From the IMG/VR virus record IMGVR_UViG_2603880148_000004: a stretch of 37,740 bases of DNA. The stretch is one strand, 5' to 3'. Position 1 is the stretch's first letter; the number at the start of each line of letters is the position of its first letter. The translations under genes were made by a program, and so were the position numbers. Origin of the DNA: a virus. Its lineage: Duplodnaviria; Heunggongvirae; Uroviricota; Caudoviricetes. Below the pieces are notes generated by a model. The model did no database searches and was not told the DNA's origin. It worked only from the letters and a program-made list of their open reading frames with translations. Below, in pieces: positions 2,944-37,270 of the stretch.

Positions 2944-3080
2944 TGTTTGAGTCTTATATGGCAGAACGTCTTCGCCGCCGCTGGGTGCGCCTGCGCTTAT
3001 ATCGTTTCCCCGGTTCTGTTTTGACCGATTACCGAATACTGAAGAGTTACGCCAAAACCCTGACAGGAGCAGGAGTATGA
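2940..3080 (+). CDS. ylcG: YlcG-like small protein, 46 aa
   Basis: Manually translated [46 protein letters not shown]; overlaps rusA stop; DLP12 gene order. Confidence 0.6.
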
Positions 3081-3165
3081 AGTCAGAGATAACAATCAAC
3101 TAATACTGTTTTGTTGATTTTTGCTTGTAATTGGCGTTTTGGTCTGATTTTTGTGGAGTAAGTTG

Positions 3166-3549
3166 ATGCGTGATATTCAGATGGTTCTTGAGCGTTGGGG
3201 AGCGTGGGCGGCTAATAATCATGAAGATGTGACCTGGTCGTCCATTGCCGCCGGTTTTAAGGGATTAATTCCTTCAAAAGTAAAATCTCGCCCGCAATGT
3301 TGTGACGATGACGCGATGATCATTTGCGGGTGCATGGCCCGTCTGAAAAAGAACAACAGCGATTTGCACGATTTATTAGTAGATTATTATATAGTCGGTA
3401 TGACATTCATGTCACTGGCAGGTAAGCATTGCTGCTCTGATGGTTATATCGGGAAAAGGTTACAAAAGGCTGAGGGCATAATTGAAGGGATGTTAATGGC
3501 ATTAGATATCCGGTTAGAGATGGATATCGTTGTTAATAACTCTAATTAA
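3166..3549 (+). CDS. quuD: Late-gene antiterminator Q (QuuD type), 127 aa
   Basis: ATG at 3166 with RBS ggagt; [24 protein letters not shown]... matches DLP12 QuuD from memory; Cys-rich zinc-binding motif; placed before lysis genes. Confidence 0.85.
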
Positions 3550-3570
3550 TACGCCAATTATTTACTAAAA

Positions 3571-3601
3571 GTTATTAAAAATGGGGCGTTGAAACGCCCC
3601 C
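3571..3601 (-). terminator. Putative intrinsic terminator for the minus-strand porin transcript
   Basis: Hairpin ggggcg/ttgaaa/cgcccc; on the minus strand it is followed by a T-rich run (atttttaat). Confidence 0.4.
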
Positions 3602-3688
3602 AAAAATAAAGGGTAATATATAACAGAAGATTTGTATAGTTAGAAGCAAGGTTGTGCTTCTAAAGGAAGTGGCTTGAGGGAGCCACTT

Positions 3689-3726
3689 ATATGTTGGGGA
3701 GGCAAAGCCTCCCACAACATATCTTT
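3689..3726 (+). terminator. Near-perfect palindrome, possible plus-strand terminator (tR'-like) or bidirectional terminator
   Basis: atatgttggggagg-caaag-cctcccacaacatat followed by ctttt; lies between Q and the 3' end of the porin gene. Confidence 0.3.
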
Positions 3727-3737
3727 TAGTAATCAAA

Positions 3738-4820
3738 TTAGAACTGGTAAACCATACCTACAGCAACGATATCATCGGTAGCAACGCCAGATGCTTTCGT
3801 GAAATCGCTCTTATCAATCAGGTTGATTTTGTAGTCAACAAAAGTGGACATATTTTTGTTGAAGTAATAGGTTGCACCTACATCAACATACTCAACCAGG
3901 TCCTGATCACCCCAAACACCCAAGTCTTTTCCTTTAGAATGCAGGTAAGCAACGGATGGACGCAGGCCGAAGTCGAACTGATATTGTGCAACAGCTTCGA
4001 AGTTTTGTGCTTTGTTGGCAATATGGTTATTACCAAAAACAGTCATGTTCTGGGTTTCAGAATAGGTGGTGGCCAGATAGATGTTGTTCGCATCATATTT
4101 CAGACCAGCTGCCCATACTTCAGCATTTTGACCAGAAGCATTCAGACCGTTGTTACCGTAGATAACCTGATTATTAGTGCGATCAGATTTAGCATAGGTT
4201 GCACCCACGCCGAATCCTTCATACTCATAAGTAGTTGAGAAACCGAAACCATCGCCATTAGCTTCAGTTACTTCATTTCGGTCATTTTTGCCCTGATACT
4301 GAGCTGCAAAGTTCAGGCCATCAACCAGACCAAAGAAGTCGTTGTTACGATAAGTTGCAACACCTGTGGTGCGACCAGTCATGAATACATCTGTTTGGGT
4401 CCAGGTATCGCCACCGAATTCTGGCAGAACGTCGGTCCATGCACCAATATCGTATGCTACACCGTAGTTACGGCCATAATCGATGGAGCCGTAGTCACCG
4501 AATTTCAGGCCAGCGAAGGCAAGACGGGTTTTATCTTTGGAGGAACCTTGAGATTCAGCGCGGTTGCCTTTGAATTCATATTCCCACTGACCGAAACCAG
4601 TCAGTTGATCGTTGATTTGGGTTTCACCTTTGAAGCCAAGACGGGCATAAGTAGTATCACCATCATCTGCATCATTAGAGGAGAAGTAGTGCTTAGCATT
4701 AACTTTCCCGTACAGATCCAGCTTGTTACTGTCTTTATTATAAATTTCAGCTGCCTGAGCAGACATCGCCATCAGTACTGATGCAGCTACAGCAGAAATT
4801 GCCACTGTTAATTTTTTCAT
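3738..4820 (-). CDS. nmpC: Outer-membrane general porin, NmpC/Lc family (lysogenic-conversion porin), 360 aa
   Basis: [23 protein letters not shown] signal peptide then [16 protein letters not shown]... and C-terminal ...VGMVYQF typical of OmpC/NmpC porins; start chosen at MKK (4820), not the upstream in-frame extension. Confidence 0.9.
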
Positions 4821-5245
4821 CGTGAGACCTTTTTTTGAACATTTATTAAAAAATGATGCCCTGCGCGACAAATATTCATCTAATCAATGTGATTAATTCA
4901 AGATGTAAGTTTTAGATTCTTATTTAAATTGTGATCTAGATCTCTATTTTTATCTGAACTTTTTCTAATGCATGCTGTGCATGACTATTCTCTGAAAGAA
5001 AATAAATTTGGTAGCTAAATTATATTAAAGGTTGTTATTTATAAGTGTTCTATAATTCATCTCTTTAATTTAAATTCACTGAAAATAACGTCGGAAATTA
5101 TTTAATGATTATTTGTTTATTTTTCCTTATGTGATTGTGGTGGTGTTTTGAACACTCGATATCATTCTCACAAATATTGTTTAGAGGTTTACGTACGTAA
5201 AAAATTGGTTATGCTGTTAAGAGTGGTTACTTCGCCACACAGCTT
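4821..5245. promoter_or_regulatory. AT-rich intergenic region: porin promoter (minus strand) and possibly a phage late promoter (plus strand)
   Basis: 425 bp strongly AT-rich without ORFs upstream of the porin start; followed by a plus-strand terminator. Confidence 0.3.
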
Positions 5246-5738: not shown

Positions 5739-6791
5739 ATGAAAAATACTGTGAAAATAAACAGTGCTGATTTAATCAACGCTGATTGCCTGCATTTTAT
5801 TCAGTCCCTGCCTGATGATTCCATTGACCTGATTGTTACCGATCCGCCGTACTTCAAGGTGAAACCCAACGGTTGGGACAATCAGTGGAAAGGGGACGAA
5901 GATTACCTGAAGTGGCTGGACCACTGTCTGGCTCAGTTCTGGCGGGGGCTGAAACCTGCCGGAAGCCTTTACCTGTTCTGTGGACATCGCCTCGCATCTG
6001 ATATCGAGATCATGATGCGTGAACGTTTCAACGTTCTTAACCATATTATCTGGGCGAAGCCGTCCGGACGATGGAACGGGTGTAATAAAGAAAGTCTGCG
6101 CGCATATTTTCCCGCAACAGAACGCGTTCTGTTTGCTGAACATTACCAGGGACCATATCGCGGCAAAAGTGACGGCTATGCGGCAAAAGAAAGTCAACTC
6201 AAACAGCACATAATGGCACCGCTGATTTCGTATTTCAGGGATGCTCGTGCCGAACTGGGTATAACGGCAAAACAGATTGCCGAAGCCACTGGTAAGAAAA
6301 ATATGGTTTCCCACTGGTTTGGTGCCAGTCAGTGGCAGTTGCCGAATGAGGCTGACTACCGGAAGTTGCAGGCACTGTTTTCCCGTATAGCGGCAGAGAA
6401 ATTTCAGGAACAACAACTGGAACAACCACACCACCAGCTGGTGGCATCTTATGATTCACTGAATCGCAAATATTCTGAATTGCTGGATGAGTTTAAAACT
6501 CTCCGGCGCTATTTCTCCGTATCAGTTTCCGTGCCTTATACCGACGTCTGGACGCATAAACCCGTTCAGTTCTACCCGGGTAAACATCCGTGTGAGAAGC
6601 CTGCGGATATGCTCCGGCAAATAATCAGTGCCAGTAGTCGACAAGGCGATCTGGTTGCTGATTTCTTTATGGGATCCGGTTCCACAATAAAAGCGGCAAT
6701 GGCGCTGGGGCGTCGGGCGTTAGGTGTTGAACTTGAGTCAGAGCGGTTTAATCAGACGGTGAAAGAGGTAAGTGAACTGGTGGGGAAATAA
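5739..6791 (+). CDS. Orphan DNA methyltransferase, beta class (N6-adenine or N4-cytosine), 350 aa
   Basis: DPPY motif (LIVTDPPYF) near the N-terminus and FxGxG SAM-binding motif (VADFFMGSGST) near the C-terminus; no adjacent restriction endonuclease gene. Confidence 0.85.
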   Translation: MKNTVKINSADLINADCLHFIQSLPDDSIDLIVTDPPYFKVKPNGWDNQWKGDEDYLKWLDHCLAQFWRGLKPAGSLYLFCGHRLASDIEIMMRERFNVLNHIIWAKPSGRWNGCNKESLRAYFPATERVLFAEHYQGPYRGKSDGYAAKESQLKQHIMAPLISYFRDARAELGITAKQIAEATGKKNMVSHWFGASQWQLPNEADYRKLQALFSRIAAEKFQEQQLEQPHHQLVASYDSLNRKYSELLDEFKTLRRYFSVSVSVPYTDVWTHKPVQFYPGKHPCEKPADMLRQIISASSRQGDLVADFFMGSGSTIKAAMALGRRALGVELESERFNQTVKEVSELVGK

Positions 6792-6867
6792 TTCTGGTGG
6801 CCACGTTGCGTGGCCTTTTTATTTCCAACACAGCACCCGCAAATATCGCGAGGTGAGAGATGACGAA

Positions 6868-7203
6868 ATGCCTCATAACCCAAATACCTGGCCGGACTGG
6901 CTGGAGTTGTTTCAGAGCTGGTGGCGTGGAGATACGCCGCTGGGCGCAGTGATTATGTCGATTGTTATGGCTGGGTTGCGCATCGCCTATTTTGGCGGTG
7001 GTGGTGGCTGGAAGCGAAAAACGCTCGAGATTTTGCTATGTGGCGCTCTGACGTTGACCTTTGCATCCGCGCTTGAGTATGTCGGATGGCCTAAATCGCT
7101 TTCTGTTGCCATTGGTGGTGGGGTGGGGCTGATCGGTGTCGATGCTATTCGTGGTGCGGCAATGAGGGTCATCGGTAACAAGTTCGGTGCCCATAAGGAG
7201 TAA
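6868..7203 (+). CDS. Putative holin, about 111 aa (start uncertain; ORF open from 6772)
   Basis: Directly precedes the R endolysin; hydrophobic segments (GAVIMSIVMAGLRIAYF, LEILLCGALTLTFASALEYVGW, AIGGGVGLIGV) and charged C-terminus; RBS gaggtgagag upstream of ATG 6868. Confidence 0.6.
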   Translation: MPHNPNTWPDWLELFQSWWRGDTPLGAVIMSIVMAGLRIAYFGGGGGWKRKTLEILLCGALTLTFASALEYVGWPKSLSVAIGGGVGLIGVDAIRGAAMRVIGNKFGAHKE

Positions 7204-8144: not shown

Positions 8145-8281
8145 AATCTTAACTACAATATGATTCATTTTGATGATTGTTTCATAAGGAACAGTGAAGT
8201 AAGATCTAAGAGGAGTTAAATTTTATACAGTATAATCATAATATTGCAGCAAGGTGGTTATAATTGAAAGAATATTTAGAT

Positions 8282-9739
8282 ATGAATACATCTCATGTAA
8301 GAGTTGTTACTCATATGTGTGGGTTCCTGGTTTGGCTCTATAGTCTTTCAATGTTGCCACCAATGGTTGTAGCATTGTTTTATAAAGAAAAAAGCCTGTT
8401 CGTTTTCTTTATAACTTTCGTTATATTTTTTTGCATTGGTGGCGGAGCGTGGTATACAACTAAGAAATCTGGCATTCAATTACGTACCCGTGATGGGTTT
8501 ATTATAATTGTAATGTTTTGGATTTTGTTTTCTGTTATTAGTGCATTCCCTTTATGGATTGACTCAGAACTTAATTTAACGTTCATTGATGCTCTGTTTG
8601 AAGGGGTTTCTGGAATAACAACAACAGGAGCAACTGTAATTGATGATGTTAGTTCATTACCTCGGGCATATTTGTACTATCGGTCACAGTTAAATTTTAT
8701 AGGTGGTTTAGGAGTTATTGTTCTGGCGGTTGCTGTATTGCCATTATTGGGTATTGGTGGTGCAAAGCTTTATCAGTCAGAAATGCCGGGGCCATTTAAG
8801 GATGACAAACTCACTCCCCGCCTGGCCGATACGTCACGGACACTGTGGATAACTTATTCTTTATTAGGTATTGCTTGTATTGTCTGTTATAGACTTGCAG
8901 GAATGCCTTTGTTTGATGCTATTTGTCACGGGATTTCCACAGTTTCGCTTGGTGGTTTCTCAACTCATAGCGAGAGTATCGGATATTTTAATAACTATTT
9001 GGTTGAGCTGGTGGCTGGTTCTTTTTCCCTGCTATCGGCTTTCAACTTCACTCTTTGGTATATTGTTATTAGCAGGAAAACGATAAAACCTTTAATCAGA
9101 GATATTGAACTTCGTTTCTTTCTGTTAATAGCCTTAGGGGTGATCATTGTTACCTCTTTCCAGGTCTGGCATATAGGTATGTATGACTTGCATGGAAGTT
9201 TTATTCATTCGTTTTTTCTTGCCAGCTCCATGCTCACTGATAATGGTTTAGCTACGCAGGATTATGCAAGTTGGCCCACGCACACGATAGTGTTTTTGCT
9301 GTTGTCAAGTTTCTTTGGGGGATGTATAGGTTCAACTTGTGGTGGAATTAAGTCACTTCGATTTCTTATACTTTTCAAACAAAGCAAACACGAGATAAAT
9401 CAGCTTTCTCATCCCAGAGCGTTGTTGAGTGTAAATGTAGGAGGGAAGATAGTTACAGATCGTGTAATGAGGTCTGTATGGAGTTTCTTTTTTCTTTATA
9501 CTCTCTTCACGGTGTTTTTTATACTGGTGTTAAATGGTATGGGATATGATTTTCTTACATCATTTGCAACAGTGGCGGCATGTATTAATAATATGGGATT
9601 AGGTTTTGGGGCTACTGCATCGTCATTCGGAGTGCTTAATGACATTGCAAAATGTTTAATGTGCATAGCTATGATTCTTGGTCGCCTTGAAATTTATCCT
9701 GTTATTATATTGTTTTCAGGTTTTTTTTGGCGCTCCTAA
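8282..9739 (+). CDS. trkG: TrkG-type K+ uptake membrane protein (TrkH/TrkG family), 485 aa
   Basis: MNTSHVRVVTHMCGFLVWLYSL... multi-pass membrane protein matching Rac-prophage TrkG from memory; gene is AT-rich; alternative TTG start at 8264 with RBS aaggtgg. Confidence 0.88.
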   Translation: MNTSHVRVVTHMCGFLVWLYSLSMLPPMVVALFYKEKSLFVFFITFVIFFCIGGGAWYTTKKSGIQLRTRDGFIIIVMFWILFSVISAFPLWIDSELNLTFIDALFEGVSGITTTGATVIDDVSSLPRAYLYYRSQLNFIGGLGVIVLAVAVLPLLGIGGAKLYQSEMPGPFKDDKLTPRLADTSRTLWITYSLLGIACIVCYRLAGMPLFDAICHGISTVSLGGFSTHSESIGYFNNYLVELVAGSFSLLSAFNFTLWYIVISRKTIKPLIRDIELRFFLLIALGVIIVTSFQVWHIGMYDLHGSFIHSFFLASSMLTDNGLATQDYASWPTHTIVFLLLSSFFGGCIGSTCGGIKSLRFLILFKQSKHEINQLSHPRALLSVNVGGKIVTDRVMRSVWSFFFLYTLFTVFFILVLNGMGYDFLTSFATVAACINNMGLGFGATASSFGVLNDIAKCLMCIAMILGRLEIYPVIILFSGFFWRS

Positions 9740-9876
9740 TATATGGCTGATTTATAATTGTGAGTTTAATATTATGTTGACTCACTCATTGATCCAATAC
9801 CTAACTTTACCAGCAACACCTCCGTCCCCAGTAGCACTGGCTGCTGGGGTGCGTTTTATTCATAAAGCAAGGCTGT

Positions 9877-10668
9877 ATGAGCGAGAAATTAAAGATAGTC
9901 TATCGCCCATTACAAGAATTGTCACCGTATGCGCACAACGCCAGGACGCACAGTACTGAGCAGGTGGCACAACTGGTAGAAAGTATTAAGCAATTCGGCT
10001 GGACTAATCCGGTGCTGATTGACGAAAAGGGCGAAATTATTGCGGGTCACGGTCGTGTTATGGCGGCTGAAATGCTCAAAATGGATTCTGTTCCGGTCAT
10101 TGTTCTGTCTGGCCTGACGGATGAGCAGAAAAAGGCGTACCGCCTGGCAGATAATCGCCTGCCGATGAATGCTGGCTGGGATGAAGATCTGTTGCGGATG
10201 GAGCTGTCGGACCTAATCAATGCTGATTTTGATGTCTCCCTGACAGGCTTCATCCCGACAGAAATTGATGAACTGTTGACGGATGTTTTGCCCGGTACAG
10301 GAAATGAGGAGGAGCCGTATACGACGAAAATTGATACGCCTGTTTATGAGCCGTCGGGCGGTAAACCGGATATCAGTGAACTGTACGACGATACGAAAAC
10401 TCAGGAGCTGATCAGCCGGATACGTTCGGCGTCCCTTGAGCCTGATATTGAGAAATTCCTCCTGTGTGCGGCAGAACGTCACACGGTGTTTAATTTCAGC
10501 AGAATTGCGGACTATTACGCTCACGCCCCCTCTGAAATTCAGTGTTTTTTCGAGGAGTCGGCGCTGGTGATCATTGATTATCAGCAGGCTATTGAAAATG
10601 GATTTGTCCGGATGACGCAGCGCATGGTGGAGATCATGCATGGTGGTGAGGAGGAGGAATATGCATGA
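9877..10668 (+). CDS. ParB-like nuclease domain protein (ParB/sulfiredoxin fold), 263 aa
   Basis: N-terminal motif LIDEKGEIIAGHGRVMAAEML resembles the ParB N-domain core; acidic C-terminal tail; K-12 Rac ynaK is a short relative at the same position. Confidence 0.7.
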   Translation: MSEKLKIVYRPLQELSPYAHNARTHSTEQVAQLVESIKQFGWTNPVLIDEKGEIIAGHGRVMAAEMLKMDSVPVIVLSGLTDEQKKAYRLADNRLPMNAGWDEDLLRMELSDLINADFDVSLTGFIPTEIDELLTDVLPGTGNEEEPYTTKIDTPVYEPSGGKPDISELYDDTKTQELISRIRSASLEPDIEKFLLCAAERHTVFNFSRIADYYAHAPSEIQCFFEESALVIIDYQQAIENGFVRMTQRMVEIMHGGEEEEYA

Positions 10669-11593
10669 TGATTTTTGCGCCTTTATTCTGACTCACGGGC
10701 GACCGGACAAAGTTCTGACTTACCGGACGTTGCGTCGTGCTGGCTATACCGGGAAAATTTTTATCGTTGTTGATGATGAAGATAAGACACGGCATCAGTA
10801 CATGGCTGAATTTGGTGAACAGGTGCTGGTGTTTTCCAAAGCCGATATCGCCAGTCGTTTTGACGAAGCCGATAATTTCTGTGACCGCCGCTCAATTTTT
10901 TACGCCCGTAATGCCTGTTTCGACCTGGCAAAACTGGTCGGGTGTAAATACTTCATTCAGCTCGATGATGATTATCACGAGTTCCAGTTTCGGGTGGATC
11001 GCAACTATGACCAGGCCTATTTTCCGATAAGGAAACTGGATGCGATCCTTTCTGAAATGCTGGCGTACTACGAATCAATACCTGCTCTTTCCATCGCTAT
11101 GTCGCAGGGCGGGGATTTTCTTGGTGACAATGGCGGCCATGCTTCGTGGGTGAAACGCAAGGCAATGAACAGCTTTATCTGTTCGGTTGATCGACCGTTC
11201 TCATTCATGGGGCGCATTAACGAGGATGTGAATACGTACACGAATCTCGGTCGCTGTGGTGAATTGTTTATGACGATCGGTGCTGTCCAGTTAGGGCAGA
11301 AACAGACGCAGAAAAACAGCGGCGGAATGACCGAGCTGTATCTGGATTCCGGAACCTACGTTAAAAGTTTTTACTCCGTCATGTATGCGCCGTCGTGCGT
11401 AAAAATCTCACTGATGGGTGCCAGCCATAAACGCATTCACCATCAGGTCACCTGGAACAACGCTGCAGTAAAAATCCTTCACGAAAAATACAGGAAGAAG
11501 ACACCCTGCATATCAATGGGGGTGACAAATGATTCCGTATTCGAAAGTCGAGTCTCTGGCAGCGTGCCGGATGACTGCACAACAAATCGCTGA
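10661..11593 (+). CDS. Uncharacterised protein with GT-A-like glycosyltransferase features, 310 aa
   Basis: Strong RBS gaggaggagg; 8-nt overlap with the ParB-like gene; motifs ILTHGRP, IFIVVDDEDKT and IQLDDDY resemble GT-A fold DxD signatures; fold assignment is inference only. Confidence 0.6.
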   Translation: MHDDFCAFILTHGRPDKVLTYRTLRRAGYTGKIFIVVDDEDKTRHQYMAEFGEQVLVFSKADIASRFDEADNFCDRRSIFYARNACFDLAKLVGCKYFIQLDDDYHEFQFRVDRNYDQAYFPIRKLDAILSEMLAYYESIPALSIAMSQGGDFLGDNGGHASWVKRKAMNSFICSVDRPFSFMGRINEDVNTYTNLGRCGELFMTIGAVQLGQKQTQKNSGGMTELYLDSGTYVKSFYSVMYAPSCVKISLMGASHKRIHHQVTWNNAAVKILHEKYRKKTPCISMGVTNDSVFESRVSGSVPDDCTTNR

Positions 11594-11780
11594 CGTTCTG
11601 GATGTTGATCTGAACCGACTGAAAGAAAATCGGGAAGCAATGACAGATTTTTATGCGGCCATCCGTAAGGGCAGAGCGAAAGGTGAAGCCGAGTTACGAG
11701 CGGCATTGTTTAAGCTTGCCAGAAAAGGGGATGCCTTTGCTCTGCGCGAACTACTCAGGGTGGATAAAAATCAGGACTAA
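11529..11780 (+). CDS. Hypothetical protein, 83 aa, possible small DNA-binding protein upstream of the terminase
   Basis: ORF with RBS gggggtga; overlaps the 3' end of the GT-A-like gene; start ambiguous (ATG 11529 or 11571). Confidence 0.4.
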   Translation: MIPYSKVESLAACRMTAQQIADVLDVDLNRLKENREAMTDFYAAIRKGRAKGEAELRAALFKLARKGDAFALRELLRVDKNQD

Positions 11781-11783
11781 CTG

Positions 11784-12878
11784 ATGAGCAGACCGGACTG
11801 GGGGGCGTTGCAGCAGGAGTATATTGCTGAATACACCCGCTCCGGTATATCTCCGGTGGCATGGTGTGAAGCAAGGGGACTGAATTACGCAACAGCCCGT
11901 CGTTACATCAAAAAAACTCCGAAAAATGCGCAGACAGAAATGTGCAAAACTGCGCAAAAAAGTGCGCAGAAAAAATCTGCGCAGACTGCACAAAAGCGGA
12001 ACGAAAAATCTCAGGAAAAAAAGCCAGTATTCGATGCGGGCCTGAATGAGGGCGACGCGGAGGAATTTTCGTTCTGTCCCGATGAATTCGGCATTTCTGA
12101 CCAGCAGGCTAAGTTTGCGATGCTTGTTGCTCAGGGTAAAAAGCCGACAGAGGCGTACCGACTAGCCGGTTATGAGGGGCAAGGTGCGACAGCTAACAGC
12201 AACGCCAGTCGTATGCTTAGAAATGCCAGGGTTTTTCGCGCTATCAGCTACTTCCGCAATCAGTACCAGAAACGCTATACCGCAGACCTGGATTTACTAG
12301 TGAGTCAGTTGATGGCTATTGTCCTGGCCGACCCCAATCAGCTTGCACAATTTCGCCGTGTTAACTGCCGTTATTGCTGGGGCGAGAATCATCTCTACCA
12401 GTGGCGCGATATAGCAGAATTCGACAAGGCAGCGGCGCAGGCTTCCAGAGATGGCAAACCCGAACCGGAATATGGAGGCCTCGGCTTTGTTGATAACGCC
12501 ATACCCAATCCGGACTGCCCGAAGTGCTGCGGTGAGGGAACGGGACAGCTTTATATGGCTGATACCACTCTGCTTGATGGGGATGCGCGGCAATTATATG
12601 CAGGGGCAAAATTCGGAAAATTCGGCGTTGAGATCCTGCTGGAGGATAAGGCTGCCGCCCGGCGTGAATTGTTGCGTTTGTTTTCTGCTGGCGGGGCTTT
12701 ATGTGCAGATAAACGGCTACAGGAACTGGAAATTGAACGGCGCAGAATGGAAAACCAGAAGCTGCGCAAAGAGATCGAAACGGTGGAAGATAATGAACAT
12801 CCCCAGCCTGTGGCGATCAATATTAATGTGGTTGATGCCAGAGTAAGGAGTGATGAAGATGATCTCTCCGACGCTTAA
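11784..12878 (+). CDS. Terminase small subunit (N-terminal HTH, C-terminal Cys-rich region), 364 aa
   Basis: Immediately upstream of the large terminase; N-terminal HTH-like segment; central segment AKFAMLVAQGKKPTEAYRLAGYEG typical of small terminase subunits; Cys motifs CRYCW / CPKCCGEG. Confidence 0.65.
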   Translation: MSRPDWGALQQEYIAEYTRSGISPVAWCEARGLNYATARRYIKKTPKNAQTEMCKTAQKSAQKKSAQTAQKRNEKSQEKKPVFDAGLNEGDAEEFSFCPDEFGISDQQAKFAMLVAQGKKPTEAYRLAGYEGQGATANSNASRMLRNARVFRAISYFRNQYQKRYTADLDLLVSQLMAIVLADPNQLAQFRRVNCRYCWGENHLYQWRDIAEFDKAAAQASRDGKPEPEYGGLGFVDNAIPNPDCPKCCGEGTGQLYMADTTLLDGDARQLYAGAKFGKFGVEILLEDKAAARRELLRLFSAGGALCADKRLQELEIERRRMENQKLRKEIETVEDNEHPQPVAININVVDARVRSDEDDLSDA

Positions 12879-14160
12879 TGTGCCTCAGGCGCGATTTCTT
12901 TCAATGCCCCATAAATTTAAAGCCTATATTGCTGGTTTTGGCTCGGGCAAAACATGGGTTGGGTGTGGCGGCATATGCAAGGGGATTTGGGAGCATCCAG
13001 GTATAAATCAGGGATATTTTGCGCCAACGTATCCCCAAATTCGCGATATTTTTTACCCTACAGTGGAAGAAGTTGCTGCTGACTGGGGATTGAACGTAAA
13101 AATTAATGAGGGAAATAAAGAGGTTCACTTTTATTACGGACGCCAGTATCGGGGAACCACTATCTGCAGATCGATGGAGAAGCCACAAACGATCGTCGGT
13201 TTCAAAATTGGTAATGCGTTGGTGGATGAACTGGACATTTTGCCGAAGGAAAAAGCCAGAACGGCGTGGCGCAAGATAATTGCACGTATGCGTTATAAGA
13301 TTGATGGACTTCGCAACGGTATTGACGTTACAACCACGCCGGAAGGATTCAAATTTGTCTACGAGCAGTTTGTTAAAGCCGTGCGTGAAAAAACAGAGCT
13401 GGCCTCACTGTATGGTCTGGTGCAGGCATCTACTTTCGATAATGAAAAGAACCTGCCAGCAGATTACATTCCTTCGCTTCTTGAATCATACCCTCCAGAG
13501 CTGATTAAAGCCTATCTTCGAGGACAGTTTACTAACCTGACAAGTGGTACTGTTTACCATCAGTTTGACCGGAAACTGAATAATTGCGAAGAAGTGGAGC
13601 AGCCAGGGGAGCCGATTTATATTGGGATGGATTTTAACGTTGGAAAGATGGCGGGAATCGTCCATGTGCTGCGTTTGGGGCTTCCATGTGCGGTAACTGA
13701 AATCATCAATGCCTACGATACGCCGGATATGATCCGCATCATTAAAGAACGCTTCTGGCTGTATGATGGGAATGATTACCGGAAAGTGAGGGAAATTTAT
13801 ATTTATCCAGATGCTTCCGGGGATTCCAGAAAATCAAGTAACGCAAGTACGACGGATATAGCCCAGCTTAAGCAGGCTGGTTTTAACGTTGTGGTGAACA
13901 GCTCGAACCCGCCAGTAAAAGATCGCGTTAACTCAATGAATGCAATGTTCTGCAATGCCAATGGTGAGCGTCGCTATAAAGTTAATGTGAAGCGTTGCCC
14001 GTTATATGCCGAATCTCTGGAGCAACAGGTCTGGGATGAGAAGGGGGAGCCTGATAAAAAATCTGGCAATGATCACCCGAATGATGCCGGAGGTTATTTC
14101 ATCGTTAAGCAATTCCCTATTGTCAAACCGACCGGAAGAGTCACATCACTTCGGATTTAA
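12859..14160 (+). CDS. Terminase large subunit, 433 aa
   Basis: Walker A AGFGSGKTW near the N-terminus; acidic nuclease-like motifs in the C-terminal half; start at ATG 12859 with RBS aaggag. Confidence 0.85.
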   Translation: MISPTLNVPQARFLSMPHKFKAYIAGFGSGKTWVGCGGICKGIWEHPGINQGYFAPTYPQIRDIFYPTVEEVAADWGLNVKINEGNKEVHFYYGRQYRGTTICRSMEKPQTIVGFKIGNALVDELDILPKEKARTAWRKIIARMRYKIDGLRNGIDVTTTPEGFKFVYEQFVKAVREKTELASLYGLVQASTFDNEKNLPADYIPSLLESYPPELIKAYLRGQFTNLTSGTVYHQFDRKLNNCEEVEQPGEPIYIGMDFNVGKMAGIVHVLRLGLPCAVTEIINAYDTPDMIRIIKERFWLYDGNDYRKVREIYIYPDASGDSRKSSNASTTDIAQLKQAGFNVVVNSSNPPVKDRVNSMNAMFCNANGERRYKVNVKRCPLYAESLEQQVWDEKGEPDKKSGNDHPNDAGGYFIVKQFPIVKPTGRVTSLRI

Positions 14161-35545: not shown

Positions 35546-36076
35546 ATGGCTAAACGCGTTACAAAATTAAAGGCCGCAGCCGAGGCGGCACCGCAGACCC
35601 GGGAAGAAGTCAGCCGTGATATCCGCACCCTGGGAGATATTCAGCGAGAGGCGCTGCGCCTGGAAACGGCGATGAATGACGAAGTGGCAGAAATCACCGC
35701 CCGTTATACGCCGCAGATTGAAAATCTTAAAAAGCAAATCAAAGTGCTTTTTAAAGGGATTCAGGACTGGTGCAAAACCAACCGTGATGAGCTGACGAAC
35801 GGCGGCAAAACCAAAACAGCCAATCTGACCACCGGAACGGTGTCATGGCGGCTGGGAACGCCATCATGCAGCGTCAGCCGTGATGTGGAAGGTGTGATTG
35901 AAATGCTGCGCCGTATGGGGCTTGAGCGTTTCATCCGCACGAAAGAGGAAGTGAACAAGGAAGCCGTCCTGGCGGAGCCGGATGCTGTGAAAGGCATTGC
36001 CGGTATCAAGGTGAATAAAGGCGCTGAAAGTTTTTATGTCGAGCCTTTTGAACAGGACGCCGGACTGAATAAATAA
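35546..36076 (+). CDS. gam: Gam-like host-nuclease inhibitor / DNA-end-binding protein, 176 aa
   Basis: Size and position as for Mu Gam; RBS aaggaaaa. Confidence 0.7.
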   Translation: MAKRVTKLKAAAEAAPQTREEVSRDIRTLGDIQREALRLETAMNDEVAEITARYTPQIENLKKQIKVLFKGIQDWCKTNRDELTNGGKTKTANLTTGTVSWRLGTPSCSVSRDVEGVIEMLRRMGLERFIRTKEEVNKEAVLAEPDAVKGIAGIKVNKGAESFYVEPFEQDAGLNK

Positions 36077-36221
36077 CACCACATTAATCAATTAAATATC
36101 ACTTCATTTTAATTATGGCGCTCGCGTCAGGGGACTGCTTGCGCCTGAAAACAGAAAATAAGGGTTAAGAAATATGAAATACGTTTATATCGTCATTAAT
36201 AATGTGGTGGGGAAATAAATC

Positions 36222-36755
36222 ATGATTGATGCAAAAGTGCTTGAAGGGGTTAAAAACTGGCTGTGTATTTATGGCCGCCTGACCTGCGGTGTACTGGCTG
36301 AAAAAATGAATATGCCGCCATCCTCCATGGTTTATTTTCTGCGTGATGCGGTTGATGCAGGCGTGCTGACGGAATGTAACGGTTTTTATGATATTCCGCG
36401 CCCCCGCCCGGTGCAGCCGGTTCGTCGCAAATGCAGCCAGGAATCTGCGGCTGATGATGTTCAGTGGTGCGGCTTCAGAAAATCCCTGCCATGGATTGAG
36501 GGGCATGATATTCCGTCGATGGCGTGGGAATTTGCTCAGGGCGTTCTGACCTGTGAAACCGTTTATGTGGTGGCTGAAGTTGATGAGCAGGCCATGAAAG
36601 AAGGCGTGCCCCAGTTTGTGATGGCGTATATCGACATACGCCTGGGCGTCATTATCTGCGGTTTAAGCGGCTGGAATATCACTGAACATGTTCTGCGCTA
36701 CCTGATTGTTGACCGGACAGCAGCGCCTGCCGGGATATCTGCGGAGGTGGCGTAA
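36222..36755 (+). CDS. Hypothetical Mu-like early protein, 177 aa
   Basis: ORF with RBS ggtgggga; position similar to Mu GemA-type genes (position only). Confidence 0.5.
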   Translation: MIDAKVLEGVKNWLCIYGRLTCGVLAEKMNMPPSSMVYFLRDAVDAGVLTECNGFYDIPRPRPVQPVRRKCSQESAADDVQWCGFRKSLPWIEGHDIPSMAWEFAQGVLTCETVYVVAEVDEQAMKEGVPQFVMAYIDIRLGVIICGLSGWNITEHVLRYLIVDRTAAPAGISAEVA

Positions 36756-37270
36756 TGTTCTTTAAAACATCAAACCCTTCCGCGCTGGCTGCGTGGCAAA
36801 AATACCAGCAGGACTGCCAGAAAGTTAAGGATGAGGCAAAACGCCTTGAGGCCGTGCTGAATGTTGCGTGCCGGTCGGTATTTGTATCCGGTATCAGTGG
36901 ATTTTACTTTAAGGGACTGCGTTTTACGGAGGACAAATATCCTTTTCATCGCGACTTATGGCGAAAACCGACTGCGTCGAATGGCTGGAGCTGCACACCG
37001 CGCACATCACGTATCCCTAAAACCCTGCGTGTTGCCTCTGATGAACTGAACAGTCTGTGGCGTGAATATTCGCCCGTCACGTATGCCAGAACCGATGCGC
37101 TGTTGTTCTGGTTGGGTATTGATTTCTCGGCAATCCTGTTTGGCCCTGTGAAGTGGTTCTGCGTTGACGATGTGATTTACCTTCAGTGCGGCGTAAAACC
37201 CGCAAAACAGAAAATGACCGAAATACTGTCTGATGAGTTTTATGCTGCTGAAAAGCGAGTCAGGGGGTGA
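36755..37270 (+). CDS. Hypothetical Mu-like early protein, 171 aa
   Basis: ORF with RBS ggaggtgg; start overlaps preceding stop. Confidence 0.5.
   Translation: MFFKTSNPSALAAWQKYQQDCQKVKDEAKRLEAVLNVACRSVFVSGISGFYFKGLRFTEDKYPFHRDLWRKPTASNGWSCTPRTSRIPKTLRVASDELNSLWREYSPVTYARTDALLFWLGIDFSAILFGPVKWFCVDDVIYLQCGVKPAKQKMTEILSDEFYAAEKRVRG

Follow-up and report, generated by a model that had tools for sequence, protein, structure and literature searches.

Comparison of 78 diverse loci suggests that the gene pair described here encodes a functional unit of two parts: a glycosyltransferase of the TAGT family, and a previously unmodelled 110-aa domain, YnaK_C. The ParB-like domain fused to YnaK_C in this prophage appears to be an optional module. 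With middling confidence, the pair can be read as a two-subunit, late-expressed phage DNA glycosyltransferase that most likely acts on DNA of the phage itself; it would probably place sugar there despite the absence of a hydroxymethyl-base acceptor. The window, as the whole analysed stretch of 37,740 nucleotides is termed, is an apparently intact Rac-like lambdoid E. coli prophage, making it an experimentally convenient example.

Both genes lie on the plus strand, as do all features located below, and both open reading frames of the first-pass annotation were borne out. ORF-A (9877–10668) is full-length YnaK, a 263-aa protein composed of a ParB/Srx N-terminal module, a flexible arm and the YnaK_C domain; ORF-B, which runs from an ATG at 10661 to 11593, is a TAGT-family GT-A glycosyltransferase of 310 aa. 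Their start codons are the RefSeq starts in ETEC H10407, and the pair is 100% identical to the copy in that strain. The reported 8-nt overlap is present, as the TGA of ynaK occupies 10666–10668 and the ATG of ORF-B 10661–10663. The strong ribosome-binding site claimed for ORF-B can also be read from the sequence: the region is GGAGG-rich, with a GGAGGAGG run at 10650–10657, and the Shine-Dalgarno-like run AGGAGGAGG (10649–10657), within the 3′ end of ynaK, would serve the start at 10661. Homologues reach E values of about 1e-209 and 1e-199, and conservation of the pair extends over bacterial phyla and to a virus of archaea. ORF-A and ORF-B are therefore genes, not chance open reading frames.

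ORF-B matches PF20691 (TAGT) over residues 8–222 at 122.3 bits (cut-off 27.5; E 3.4e-35), and its fold is that of the GT-A (nucleotide-diphospho-sugar transferase) enzymes. The GT-A core (aa 1–215) is followed by a conserved basic region (aa 216–285) and a non-conserved tail (aa 286–310). The R...DDD...ED active-site motif described for the family (bioRxiv 10.1101/2023.12.21.572611) is found in ORF-B as R14, D102-D103-D104 and E188-D189, each invariant across 74 loci. The GT-A-like signatures quoted in the first-pass annotation are likewise genuine and conserved, with D41 of IFIVVDDEDKT and D102–D104 of IQLDDDY invariant in those loci. ORF-B would be the catalytic GT-A subunit, using an NDP-sugar and a DxD-bound metal. 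Its name in RefSeq and UniRef is 'GREB1-related protein'. T6 ggt scores 35.8 bits with the PF20691 model, whereas hhalign of the clade profile against T6 ggt produced no alignment; what links the two is therefore their common Pfam model, together with similarity of fold.

The N-terminal module of YnaK (aa 1–136; 9877–10284) belongs to the ParB/Srx superfamily (PF02195) by both HMM match and fold. The ParB motif noted earlier is real: IIAGHGRVMAA aligns with the GERRxRAA box of ParB. In this nucleotide-binding box, AGHGRVMAA retains the glycine and one arginine and has lost two arginines; a helical WD..LL..E...LTGF..EID segment follows. G57, R60 and N93 of the module are invariant and D92 is nearly so. 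With the partition ParB proteins Spo0J, KorB and PadC, YnaK has in common the fold of the N-domain and two motifs, GxxR and (D/E)N. In contrast to them, it lacks an HTH DNA-binding domain, a C-terminal dimerisation domain and a neighbouring ParA. Of the three box-II arginines, two are replaced; YnaK_C makes up the C-terminal half, and trkG and the TAGT gene lie on either side. The match to TIGR00180 covers residues 11–94 only and scores 38 bits, short of the cut-off of 58. Labels such as 'chromosome partitioning protein' notwithstanding, YnaK is not a partition protein. It is also highly acidic (pI 4.5; net charge about −25), and no HTH is detectable in it, so direct DNA binding by YnaK is not evident.

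The N-terminal ~140 residues are homologous, at 30–56% identity, to those of ParB/Srx–DNA methyltransferase fusions (phrog_498, matched at 9e-51; PADLOC MTase_II PDLC03229, matched at 1.5e-38). In these phage and plasmid proteins the module also resides on mobile elements, often encoded near terminase genes. There, a methyltransferase domain follows ParB; in YnaK, that place is taken by YnaK_C, and the catalytic glycosyltransferase is a separate, translationally coupled polypeptide. A domain scan found no N6/N4 methyltransferase domain within YnaK. The TAGT family and its link to ParB are already described in the literature (Iyer et al. 2013, as relayed in PMC8256090), and no experimental test of the ParB-linked form was found in the literature searched.

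What is new is that this TAGT clade has YnaK_C, and not the ParB domain, as its obligatory partner, judging by comparative sequence analysis. YnaK_C (aa 145–255, ~110 aa; 10309–10641) was delimited from an HMM scan of the loci, a conservation table and an alignment. It begins with an extended arm, Y148-[ST]-x-K-x-x-x-P155-x-Y157-x-P, and continues into helices; Y148, P155, Y157, L195, R201, A211, Y214, E226, D234 and A238 are invariant across 74 loci. The domain has no Pfam match, its best hit in a PDB profile search was to designed armadillo repeats at only E 0.018, and its AF2 model is of low confidence. It is C-terminal in all of 1189 cluster representatives. The pair was kept across genomes, as a co-occurrence check suggested by the first-pass annotation could have it, with the correction that the conserved companion of TAGT is YnaK_C: its gene lies directly upstream of the TAGT gene, usually overlapping it, in 75 of the 78 loci. 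The loci come from Proteobacteria, Firmicutes, Bacteroidota and Saccharibacteria, together with an archaeal MAG and the halovirus HHTV-2. Mean identity is 48% for YnaK_C and 51% for TAGT but only 36% for ParB, and YnaK_C and TAGT distances are correlated (r = 0.57; Mantel p <= 0.001).

These observations bear on whether the genes are adjacent without sharing a function, YnaK being a ParB-like packaging accessory at pac or cos and the TAGT unrelated cargo. Genes with a ParB module do occur upstream of terminases without a glycosyltransferase, as in E. coli phage vB_EcoM-473R2, and insertions are common in the slot upstream of terS. However, it is YnaK_C that accompanies TAGT, even in ParB-less loci distant from the terminase; the overlap of the genes recurs in phages whose hosts are unrelated; and the two partners diverge in concert. 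The co-occurrence data largely refute chance adjacency, which is very hard to credit. Two further ideas about YnaK_C were rejected. A small helical oxygenase making 5hmU for a base-J-like pathway would be at odds with the lack of an invariant histidine (H202 is 92% conserved, H216 below 85%; E226 and D234 are the sole invariant acidic residues). A clade-specific C-terminal dock for YnaK_C on TAGT was discarded because the candidate element, GG(M/N)(T/S)...Y...GT..KS, also occurs in the partner-less TAGT of Aeromonas phage 65.

Genomic context points to how the modules may be used. The ParB-fused form is nearly always upstream of terminase genes, whatever the terminase family (at least four families), and in phage c5 it lies 79 nt from the cos end. 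ParB-less pairs are found between DNA polymerase A and the beta clamp (loci L101 and L111) and, in Vibrio phage pv27, between primase/exonuclease and helicase; stand-alone YnaK_C forms without ParB exist in phages whose pair sits among replisome genes. In another locus (L136), a SAM-methyltransferase, ParB and YnaK_C are fused. The ParB/Srx module would be an optional targeting or regulatory add-on, as on many phage DNA methyltransferases, kept where the pair heads a packaging operon and missing where the pair is among replisome genes. YnaK_C probably binds ORF-B and helps to specify the acceptor or present it. When neighbours within 5 kb were clustered by BLAST, terminase and portal families alone emerged, and no third conserved gene.

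In the window, the pair precedes the terminase genes as first annotated; it does not directly follow the lysis cassette, from which the trkG moron (8264–9739) separates it. A terminator-like hairpin followed by a T-run (9826–9849), found by terminator scan, closes this low-GC moron and sets the 5′ boundary of the module just upstream of ynaK. Downstream, the terminase region (11784–14160) comprises small (11784–12878) and large (12850–14160) subunit genes with Pfam matches to Terminase_2, Terminase_6N and Terminase_6C. A small ORF (11529–11780) resembling a segment of small terminase subunits (phrog_309 at 8e-23; 69 aa in the RefSeq version) overlaps the non-conserved tail of ORF-B. GC is 0.32–0.41 over trkG and 0.48–0.50 over the pair and terminase genes. 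Morons, trkG and a porin gene, flank the region. A late promoter would drive the pair together with the terminase genes, and the enzyme would act on DNA already replicated, ahead of packaging or as it proceeds, probably to blunt host nucleases.

The same surroundings bear on a role in prophage defence or lysogenic conversion, in which the glycosyltransferase would act on invading phage DNA or the cell envelope to the benefit of the lysogen. Anti-phage roles of prophage glycosyltransferases were raised by the first-pass annotation and elsewhere (bioRxiv 10.1101/2023.12.21.572611), and the flanking morons would suit such a role. Against it, the pair has the GC of the phage backbone, lies beyond the terminator that closes trkG and has no convincing promoter of its own. 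Among PADLOC 2.0 defence models, ORF-B is unmatched and ORF-A matches only through the likeness of its ParB module to a methyltransferase N-terminus. Non-temperate contexts occur as well (a 191-kb Vibrio phage, the cos phage c5, replisome modules), and the same pair is found in viruses of Gram-negative bacteria, Gram-positive bacteria and haloarchaea, whose envelopes are unrelated. A defence function is accordingly quite improbable.

The preferred reading, modification of the phage's own DNA, draws on the characterised relatives. The T2/T6 beta-glucosyl-HMC-alpha-glucosyltransferase, metavirome 5hmC GT-A enzymes and the base-J glucosyltransferase JGT of kinetoplastids have PF20691, the GT-A fold and the R...DDD...ED motif in common with ORF-B, and the phage members, like ORF-B, are phage-encoded in DNA-linked gene neighbourhoods. 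T2/T6 ggt act on DNA (PMC13216743, PMC13390438), as does the kinetoplastid JGT (PMC7968844). The span of hosts from Proteobacteria to archaea calls for a universal substrate. The T4 alpha- and beta-glucosyltransferases also glycosylate phage DNA after replication, as is proposed for the pair, and the reported work of T4 alpha-GT with the replisome (PMC13216743) parallels the PolA/clamp context of ParB-less pairs; unlike ORF-B, to which they are evolutionarily unrelated, these enzymes have a GT-B fold (GT63/GT72) and need a 5hmC acceptor. Several L. delbrueckii phages have a split or truncated TAGT gene, a state that fits an accessory role.

The difficulty lies in the acceptor. The T2/T6, metavirome and JGT enzymes use 5-hydroxymethyl-pyrimidines, or sugar already on them, and their genes are accompanied by that of a hydroxymethylase, or by those of a methyltransferase and TET (PMC8256090). 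The YnaK-linked clade differs in having no hydroxymethyl partner even in complete genomes, and in its dedicated YnaK_C subunit, which the 5hmC-type TAGTs of Aeromonas phage 65 and T6 do not have beside them. The scanned ORFs of the window include no TET/JBP, thymidylate-synthase-like hydroxymethylase or C5-methyltransferase. Within 5 kb across the 78 loci, neither a hydroxymethyl-pyrimidine source (TET/JBP with C5-methyltransferase, or dCMP/dUMP hydroxymethylase) nor a primary glycosyltransferase recurs, and the complete genomes of phi jlb1 and c5 have no TET/JBP, hydroxymethylase or primary glycosyltransferase annotated. The absence of TET/JBP, hydroxymethylase and C5-methyltransferase from the window and from both genomes speaks against DNA glycosylation, and the acidity of YnaK and its lack of an HTH would do so too. 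To our knowledge, every characterised phage DNA glycosylation begins at 5-hydroxymethyl-pyrimidine or 5-hydroxy-pyrimidine bases, and we know of no hydroxyl acceptor in unmodified DNA, which counts further against a DNA acceptor. Recent surveys found no such pathway for the majority of viral GT-A/TAGT genes, whose role they left open (bioRxiv 10.1101/2023.12.21.572611; PMC13216743), with a solitary TAGT in 288 of 753 phages (PMC13216743). In the literature searched, no modification was reported for any phage with the pair. One tentative solution, plausible though short of an even prospect, is that YnaK_C–TAGT adds sugar directly to an ordinary DNA component (an exocyclic amine or oxygen of a canonical base, or the backbone) without a hydroxymethyl-pyrimidine precursor, YnaK_C supplying acceptor recognition or activation.

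Alternatively, the acceptor may be a protein. TAGT could target the YnaK arm (Tyr148, Ser/Thr149, Tyr157) in a glycogenin-like manner, or another phage protein co-made with it, for instance terminase, portal or capsid, with ParB/YnaK_C as substrate or substrate adaptor. The eukaryotic family member GREB1, which shares the TAGT catalytic domain with ORF-B and is an animal protein O-GlcNAc transferase, glycosylates a protein, and this counts against the DNA reading; it is a 1949-aa multidomain cytoplasmic protein acting on ER-alpha (PMC7968844) and, unlike ORF-B, has no YnaK_C or ParB partner. The invariant Tyr and the Ser/Thr of the disordered YnaK_C arm could themselves be acceptors. Yet ParB-less pairs lie within replisome modules far from structural genes, the ParB module is elsewhere joined to DNA methyltransferases, and the characterised prokaryotic-virus and kinetoplastid relatives act on DNA. 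A glycosylated YnaK has no apparent biological purpose, and carriers have differing terminase, portal and capsid families, which makes a common target in the virion unlikely. Protein glycosylation is possible on this evidence but doubtful.

A small-molecule or counter-defence enzyme is unlikely. It would act on a nucleotide, signalling molecule or other soluble metabolite, with ParB/Srx serving to bind nucleotide or transfer phosphate, as it does in sulfiredoxin or free serine kinase. Stand-alone YnaK_C forms show the ParB module to be dispensable, most of its nucleotide-binding box is lost, and the tight linkage to replisome and terminase genes would be left unexplained. We know of no TAGT family member that acts on a small molecule.

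The first-pass reading of a ParB-like protein and a GT-A-like partner in DNA or protein modification is supported. If the acceptor is canonical DNA, the pair would represent a chemically new class of DNA modification, with bearing on restriction evasion, sequencing artefacts and enzyme tools. Its carriers would then be more than 1000 phage lineages (50% identity clusters) infecting bacteria and archaea, and about 16–30% of complete E. coli genomes would have it dormant in their prophages. Should the acceptor be a protein, the pair would instead constitute a new, widespread phage protein-glycosylation system tied to DNA replication and packaging.

The window corresponds to a lambdoid, Rac-like E. 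coli prophage, whose positions 9700-11800 are 100% identical to ETEC H10407 and are matched in 1610 of 5426 complete E. coli genomes (867 of the 1610 at ≥80% query coverage). The local gene order is: Q antiterminator; porin gene (minus strand); N6/N4 DNA methyltransferase; holin, endolysin and Rz; trkG; ORF-A; ORF-B; a small terS-like ORF; terS; and terL. The coupled pair proposed in the first-pass annotation is borne out. ORF-A, the full-length form of YnaK, spans 9877-10668 (263 aa), ORF-B extends from an ATG at 10661 to 11593 (310 aa), and the YnaK stop codon at 10666-10668 results in an 8-nt overlap. The Shine-Dalgarno-like run GGAGGAGG is read at 10650-10657, ahead of the ORF-B ATG. In E. 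coli K-12, ynaK survives only as a truncated remnant. In E. coli MB22 (NZ_CP073974.1, search hit H1), an IS3 element lies inside the region of the pair, such that the otherwise identical prophage is matched in two pieces.

Upstream of the pair is trkG (8264-9739, plus strand), a low-GC moron for a Trk potassium transporter situated after the lysis cassette and ahead of the late packaging genes; its insertion has a GC content of 0.32-0.41 against flanks of ~0.50, and it is closed by a terminator-like hairpin and T-run at 9826-9849. The GC content of the pair, 0.48-0.50, is that of the phage late genes, and inspection of the region for terminators, GC and promoters identified no convincing promoter belonging to the pair itself. 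Taken together with its position behind the hairpin, this suggests that the pair is transcribed from the late promoter with the terminase genes.

Several neighbors merit description. The interval separating the Q antiterminator from the lysis genes contains a typical lambdoid moron, a complete Gram-negative porin gene (3738-4871, minus strand; Porin_1, 4e-152). The gene at 5739-6791 (plus strand) encodes a 350-aa N6/N4 DNA methyltransferase (PF01555, 2e-40; PADLOC MTase_II PDLC03265, 5e-151) and adjoins and overlaps the downstream holin gene (6772-7203). The ETEC H10407 prophage, homologous elsewhere, has no gene in that place, and its holin (essD) is a different one. An 83-aa ORF (11529-11780, plus strand; 69 aa in RefSeq) overlaps the non-conserved tail of ORF-B directly 5' of the 364-aa terS. 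It resembles an internal segment of small terminase family phrog_309 (positions 145-218 of 319) and may be a split or additional terS-like DNA-binding piece. Past the tail genes, at the right end (35546-37270, plus strand), a Mu-like Gam (PF07352, 5e-42) and a Mu gp11 C-terminal domain protein (6e-41) point either to a mosaic junction or to another element of Mu type.

The GT-A reading of the 310-aa protein is upheld by sequence, fold and motif, each of which places ORF-B among the TET/JBP-associated glycosyltransferases (TAGT). It matches Pfam PF20691 at 3.4e-35 and phrog_842 at 1.6e-103. The AlphaFold model has a pTM of 0.75, with core residues 1-215 mostly above pLDDT 90, and the viral structures that it matches best are those of proteins annotated as TAGT, including a T-even-type beta-glucosyl-HMC-alpha-glucosyltransferase. 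Across 74 diverse loci, R14, D102-D104 and N187-E188-D189 are invariant, a pattern that corresponds to the R...DDD...ED motif reported for JGT and the GT-A DNA glycosyltransferases of phages (bioRxiv 10.1101/2023.12.21.572611).

The genomic context differs from that of characterized TAGT relatives, which have a defining hydroxymethyl-base partner. TET/JBP dioxygenases, thymidylate-synthase-like hydroxymethylases and C5-methyltransferases gave zero Pfam matches among the scanned window ORFs (both flanks and the packaging genes), and the annotation of the complete Lactobacillus phage genomes phi jlb1 (38 kb) and c5 (32 kb) likewise lists none. The source of hydroxymethyl-pyrimidine, and with it the defining partner, is thus missing from this clade as sampled here.

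For the 263-aa protein, the proposed ParB-type N-domain is supported. ORF-A scores barely over the cut-off for Pfam ParB_N, and its IIAGHGRVMAA segment aligns with the ParB GERRxRAA box, but one of the three box arginines is retained and two are lost. A partition ParB is ruled out: Pfam and NCBIfam detect no helix-turn-helix (HTH), no ParA gene is adjacent, and the score lies below the TIGR00180 cut-off. The N-terminal ~140 residues are instead closest to the N-module of phage DNA methyltransferases (phrog_498, 9e-51; PADLOC MTase_II model, 1.5e-38). This module occurs in 430 phage records by tblastn, and many among the matches listed are annotated as DNA methylases. In Streptococcus phage Javan517 (locus L158, 3501-4675), the gene for a 172-aa ParB-module protein annotated 'DNA modification methylase' overlaps by 22 nt that of a 225-aa protein which is labeled, implausibly, 'ABC iron siderophore transporter'. 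These two genes, ~1.4 kb upstream of the terminase, may represent a further two-gene system that uses this ParB module.

The constant partner of TAGT is the C-terminal domain of YnaK, here YnaK_C. HMMs were built for the YnaK N-module, the C-terminal region (aa 145-255) and TAGT, and every locus was scanned; a one-genome-per-species scan contributed 65 loci with pair homologues. In 75 of 78 diverse loci, YnaK_C is encoded directly 5' of TAGT, mostly overlapping it, and the other three are TAGT fragments or contig edges. The pairing therefore holds across genomes, with YnaK_C rather than the ParB module as its fixed element. Of these 75 loci, 55 have a recognizable ParB module; eight more have divergent N-domains, with weak ParB_N matches in four of the seven scanned with Pfam; and at least five (Vibrio phage pv27, L009; L101, L111, L118, L125) encode a stand-alone YnaK_C of ~130-140 aa. 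YnaK_C matches the enzyme in conservation (mean identity 48%, against 51% for TAGT and 36% for ParB), and the pairwise divergences of YnaK_C and TAGT are correlated (r = 0.57, Mantel p ≤ 0.001). This co-occurrence effectively excludes bare adjacency of genes with unshared functions, to which we give almost no credence. The ParB fold has kinase and sulfiredoxin relatives, which points to a possible small-molecule or nucleotide target, but such a target is improbable given that the ParB module is dispensable.

YnaK_C has zero matches in Pfam, NCBIfam or PDB searches. The family comprises 1189 representatives at 50% clustering, with the domain C-terminal in all. The domain signature consists of an extended arm, Y148-[S/T]-x-K-x-x-x-P155-x-Y157-x-P, and the helices behind it, and Y148, P155, Y157, L195, R201, A211, Y214, E226, D234 and A238 are invariant in 74 loci. 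The arm is conserved although predicted to be disordered, and GREB1 shows that the TAGT family can act on proteins (PMC7968844). Both observations favor protein glycosylation, possibly self-glycosylation on an invariant Tyr or Ser/Thr of this arm, an explanation that we consider unlikely.

Pair homologues were first seen in metagenomic phages, 5' of terminases of three unrelated types, and occur in phi jlb1, haloarchaeal virus HHTV-2 and phage c5, where they are ORF1-ORF2, 79 nt from the cos end. The 65 scan loci span Bacteroidota, Firmicutes, Veillonella, Kiritimatiellae, Acidobacteriota, Saccharibacteria, an archaeal MAG and others. The largest ORF ≤600 nt downstream of TAGT, taken for 72 loci, encodes a large terminase subunit in ~45 of them, with at least four families represented (Terminase_6N, 26; Terminase_3, 15; GpA, 2-3; TerL_ATPase, 2), and a small subunit in several others. 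Besides terminase and portal, no gene family recurs within 5 kb of the pair. A defense or envelope conversion benefiting the lysogen is very improbable: the pair has a late-operon position, its carriers include non-temperate phages and infect hosts whose envelopes are of unrelated types, and it has no PADLOC defense match beyond that of the ORF-A N-module to MTase_II.

Pairs with stand-alone YnaK_C are located among replication genes. In the 191-kb Vibrio phage pv27, primase/exonuclease lies on one side and helicase on the other. In L101, a Bacteroidaceae MAG, DNA polymerase A is followed by a second divergent TAGT, then YnaK_C, TAGT and beta clamp, with RecA further downstream; the flanking of YnaK_C by two TAGT paralogues (2970-5117) suggests, by analogy with T6, two successive sugar additions. 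An Ignavibacteriae MAG (L136, 189-1739) encodes, directly 5' of TAGT, a 516-aa fusion of a class I SAM-methyltransferase-like part (weak Pfam matches, about 5e-4), ParB module and YnaK_C.

Taken as a whole, there is about an even chance that the pair forms one two-protein enzyme with DNA as its probable target and an accessory role, for example counter-restriction. DNA is favored on four grounds: it is the substrate of the viral and kinetoplastid relatives characterized so far; the pair occurs in two alternative settings, replisome and packaging machinery; DNA methyltransferases carry the ParB module as well; and hosts ranging over many bacterial phyla and haloarchaea call for a universal substrate. 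Against this, we know of no hydroxyl acceptor in unmodified DNA, YnaK is strongly acidic (pI 4.5, net charge about -25) with no detected HTH, and the literature searched reports no DNA modification for carrier phages. Direct glycosylation of canonical DNA is a tentative proposal, which we would sooner doubt than accept. In the proposed two-protein mechanism, TAGT would be the NDP-sugar-dependent catalytic subunit, YnaK_C an obligatory subunit helping acceptor binding or presentation, and the ParB/Srx module an optional targeting or regulatory add-on, as phages also attach to DNA methyltransferases. Late expression would restrict modification to virion-bound DNA. TAGT frequently decays in L. 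delbrueckii phages, being split in phiLdb and Ld17, partial in LL-Ku and a 45-aa remnant in Ld25A (hits H49-H59, H66-H67). This decay indicates repeated module loss among close relatives of c5, and fits an accessory rather than an essential packaging role.

The first-pass annotation regarded the pair as a candidate uncharacterized system. It is not a new kind of system, since the TAGT family is already named, ParB, terminase and clamp genes have been noted near viral GT-A genes (bioRxiv 10.1101/2023.12.21.572611; PMC13216743), and both genes are annotated in RefSeq. Likewise, ~65% of GT-bearing viral contigs lack 5mYOX or ThyS, and a solitary TAGT, its role left open, occurs in 288 of 753 phages (bioRxiv 10.1101/2023.12.21.572611; PMC13216743). 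No YnaK_C gene was found near the TAGT of T6 or Aeromonas phage 65, in contrast to this clade; both phages use hydroxymethylcytosine. Within reach of the tools used, what appears to be previously undescribed is the definition of this large solitary-TAGT clade by an obligatory, unmodeled partner domain, YnaK_C, to which ParB is accessory.
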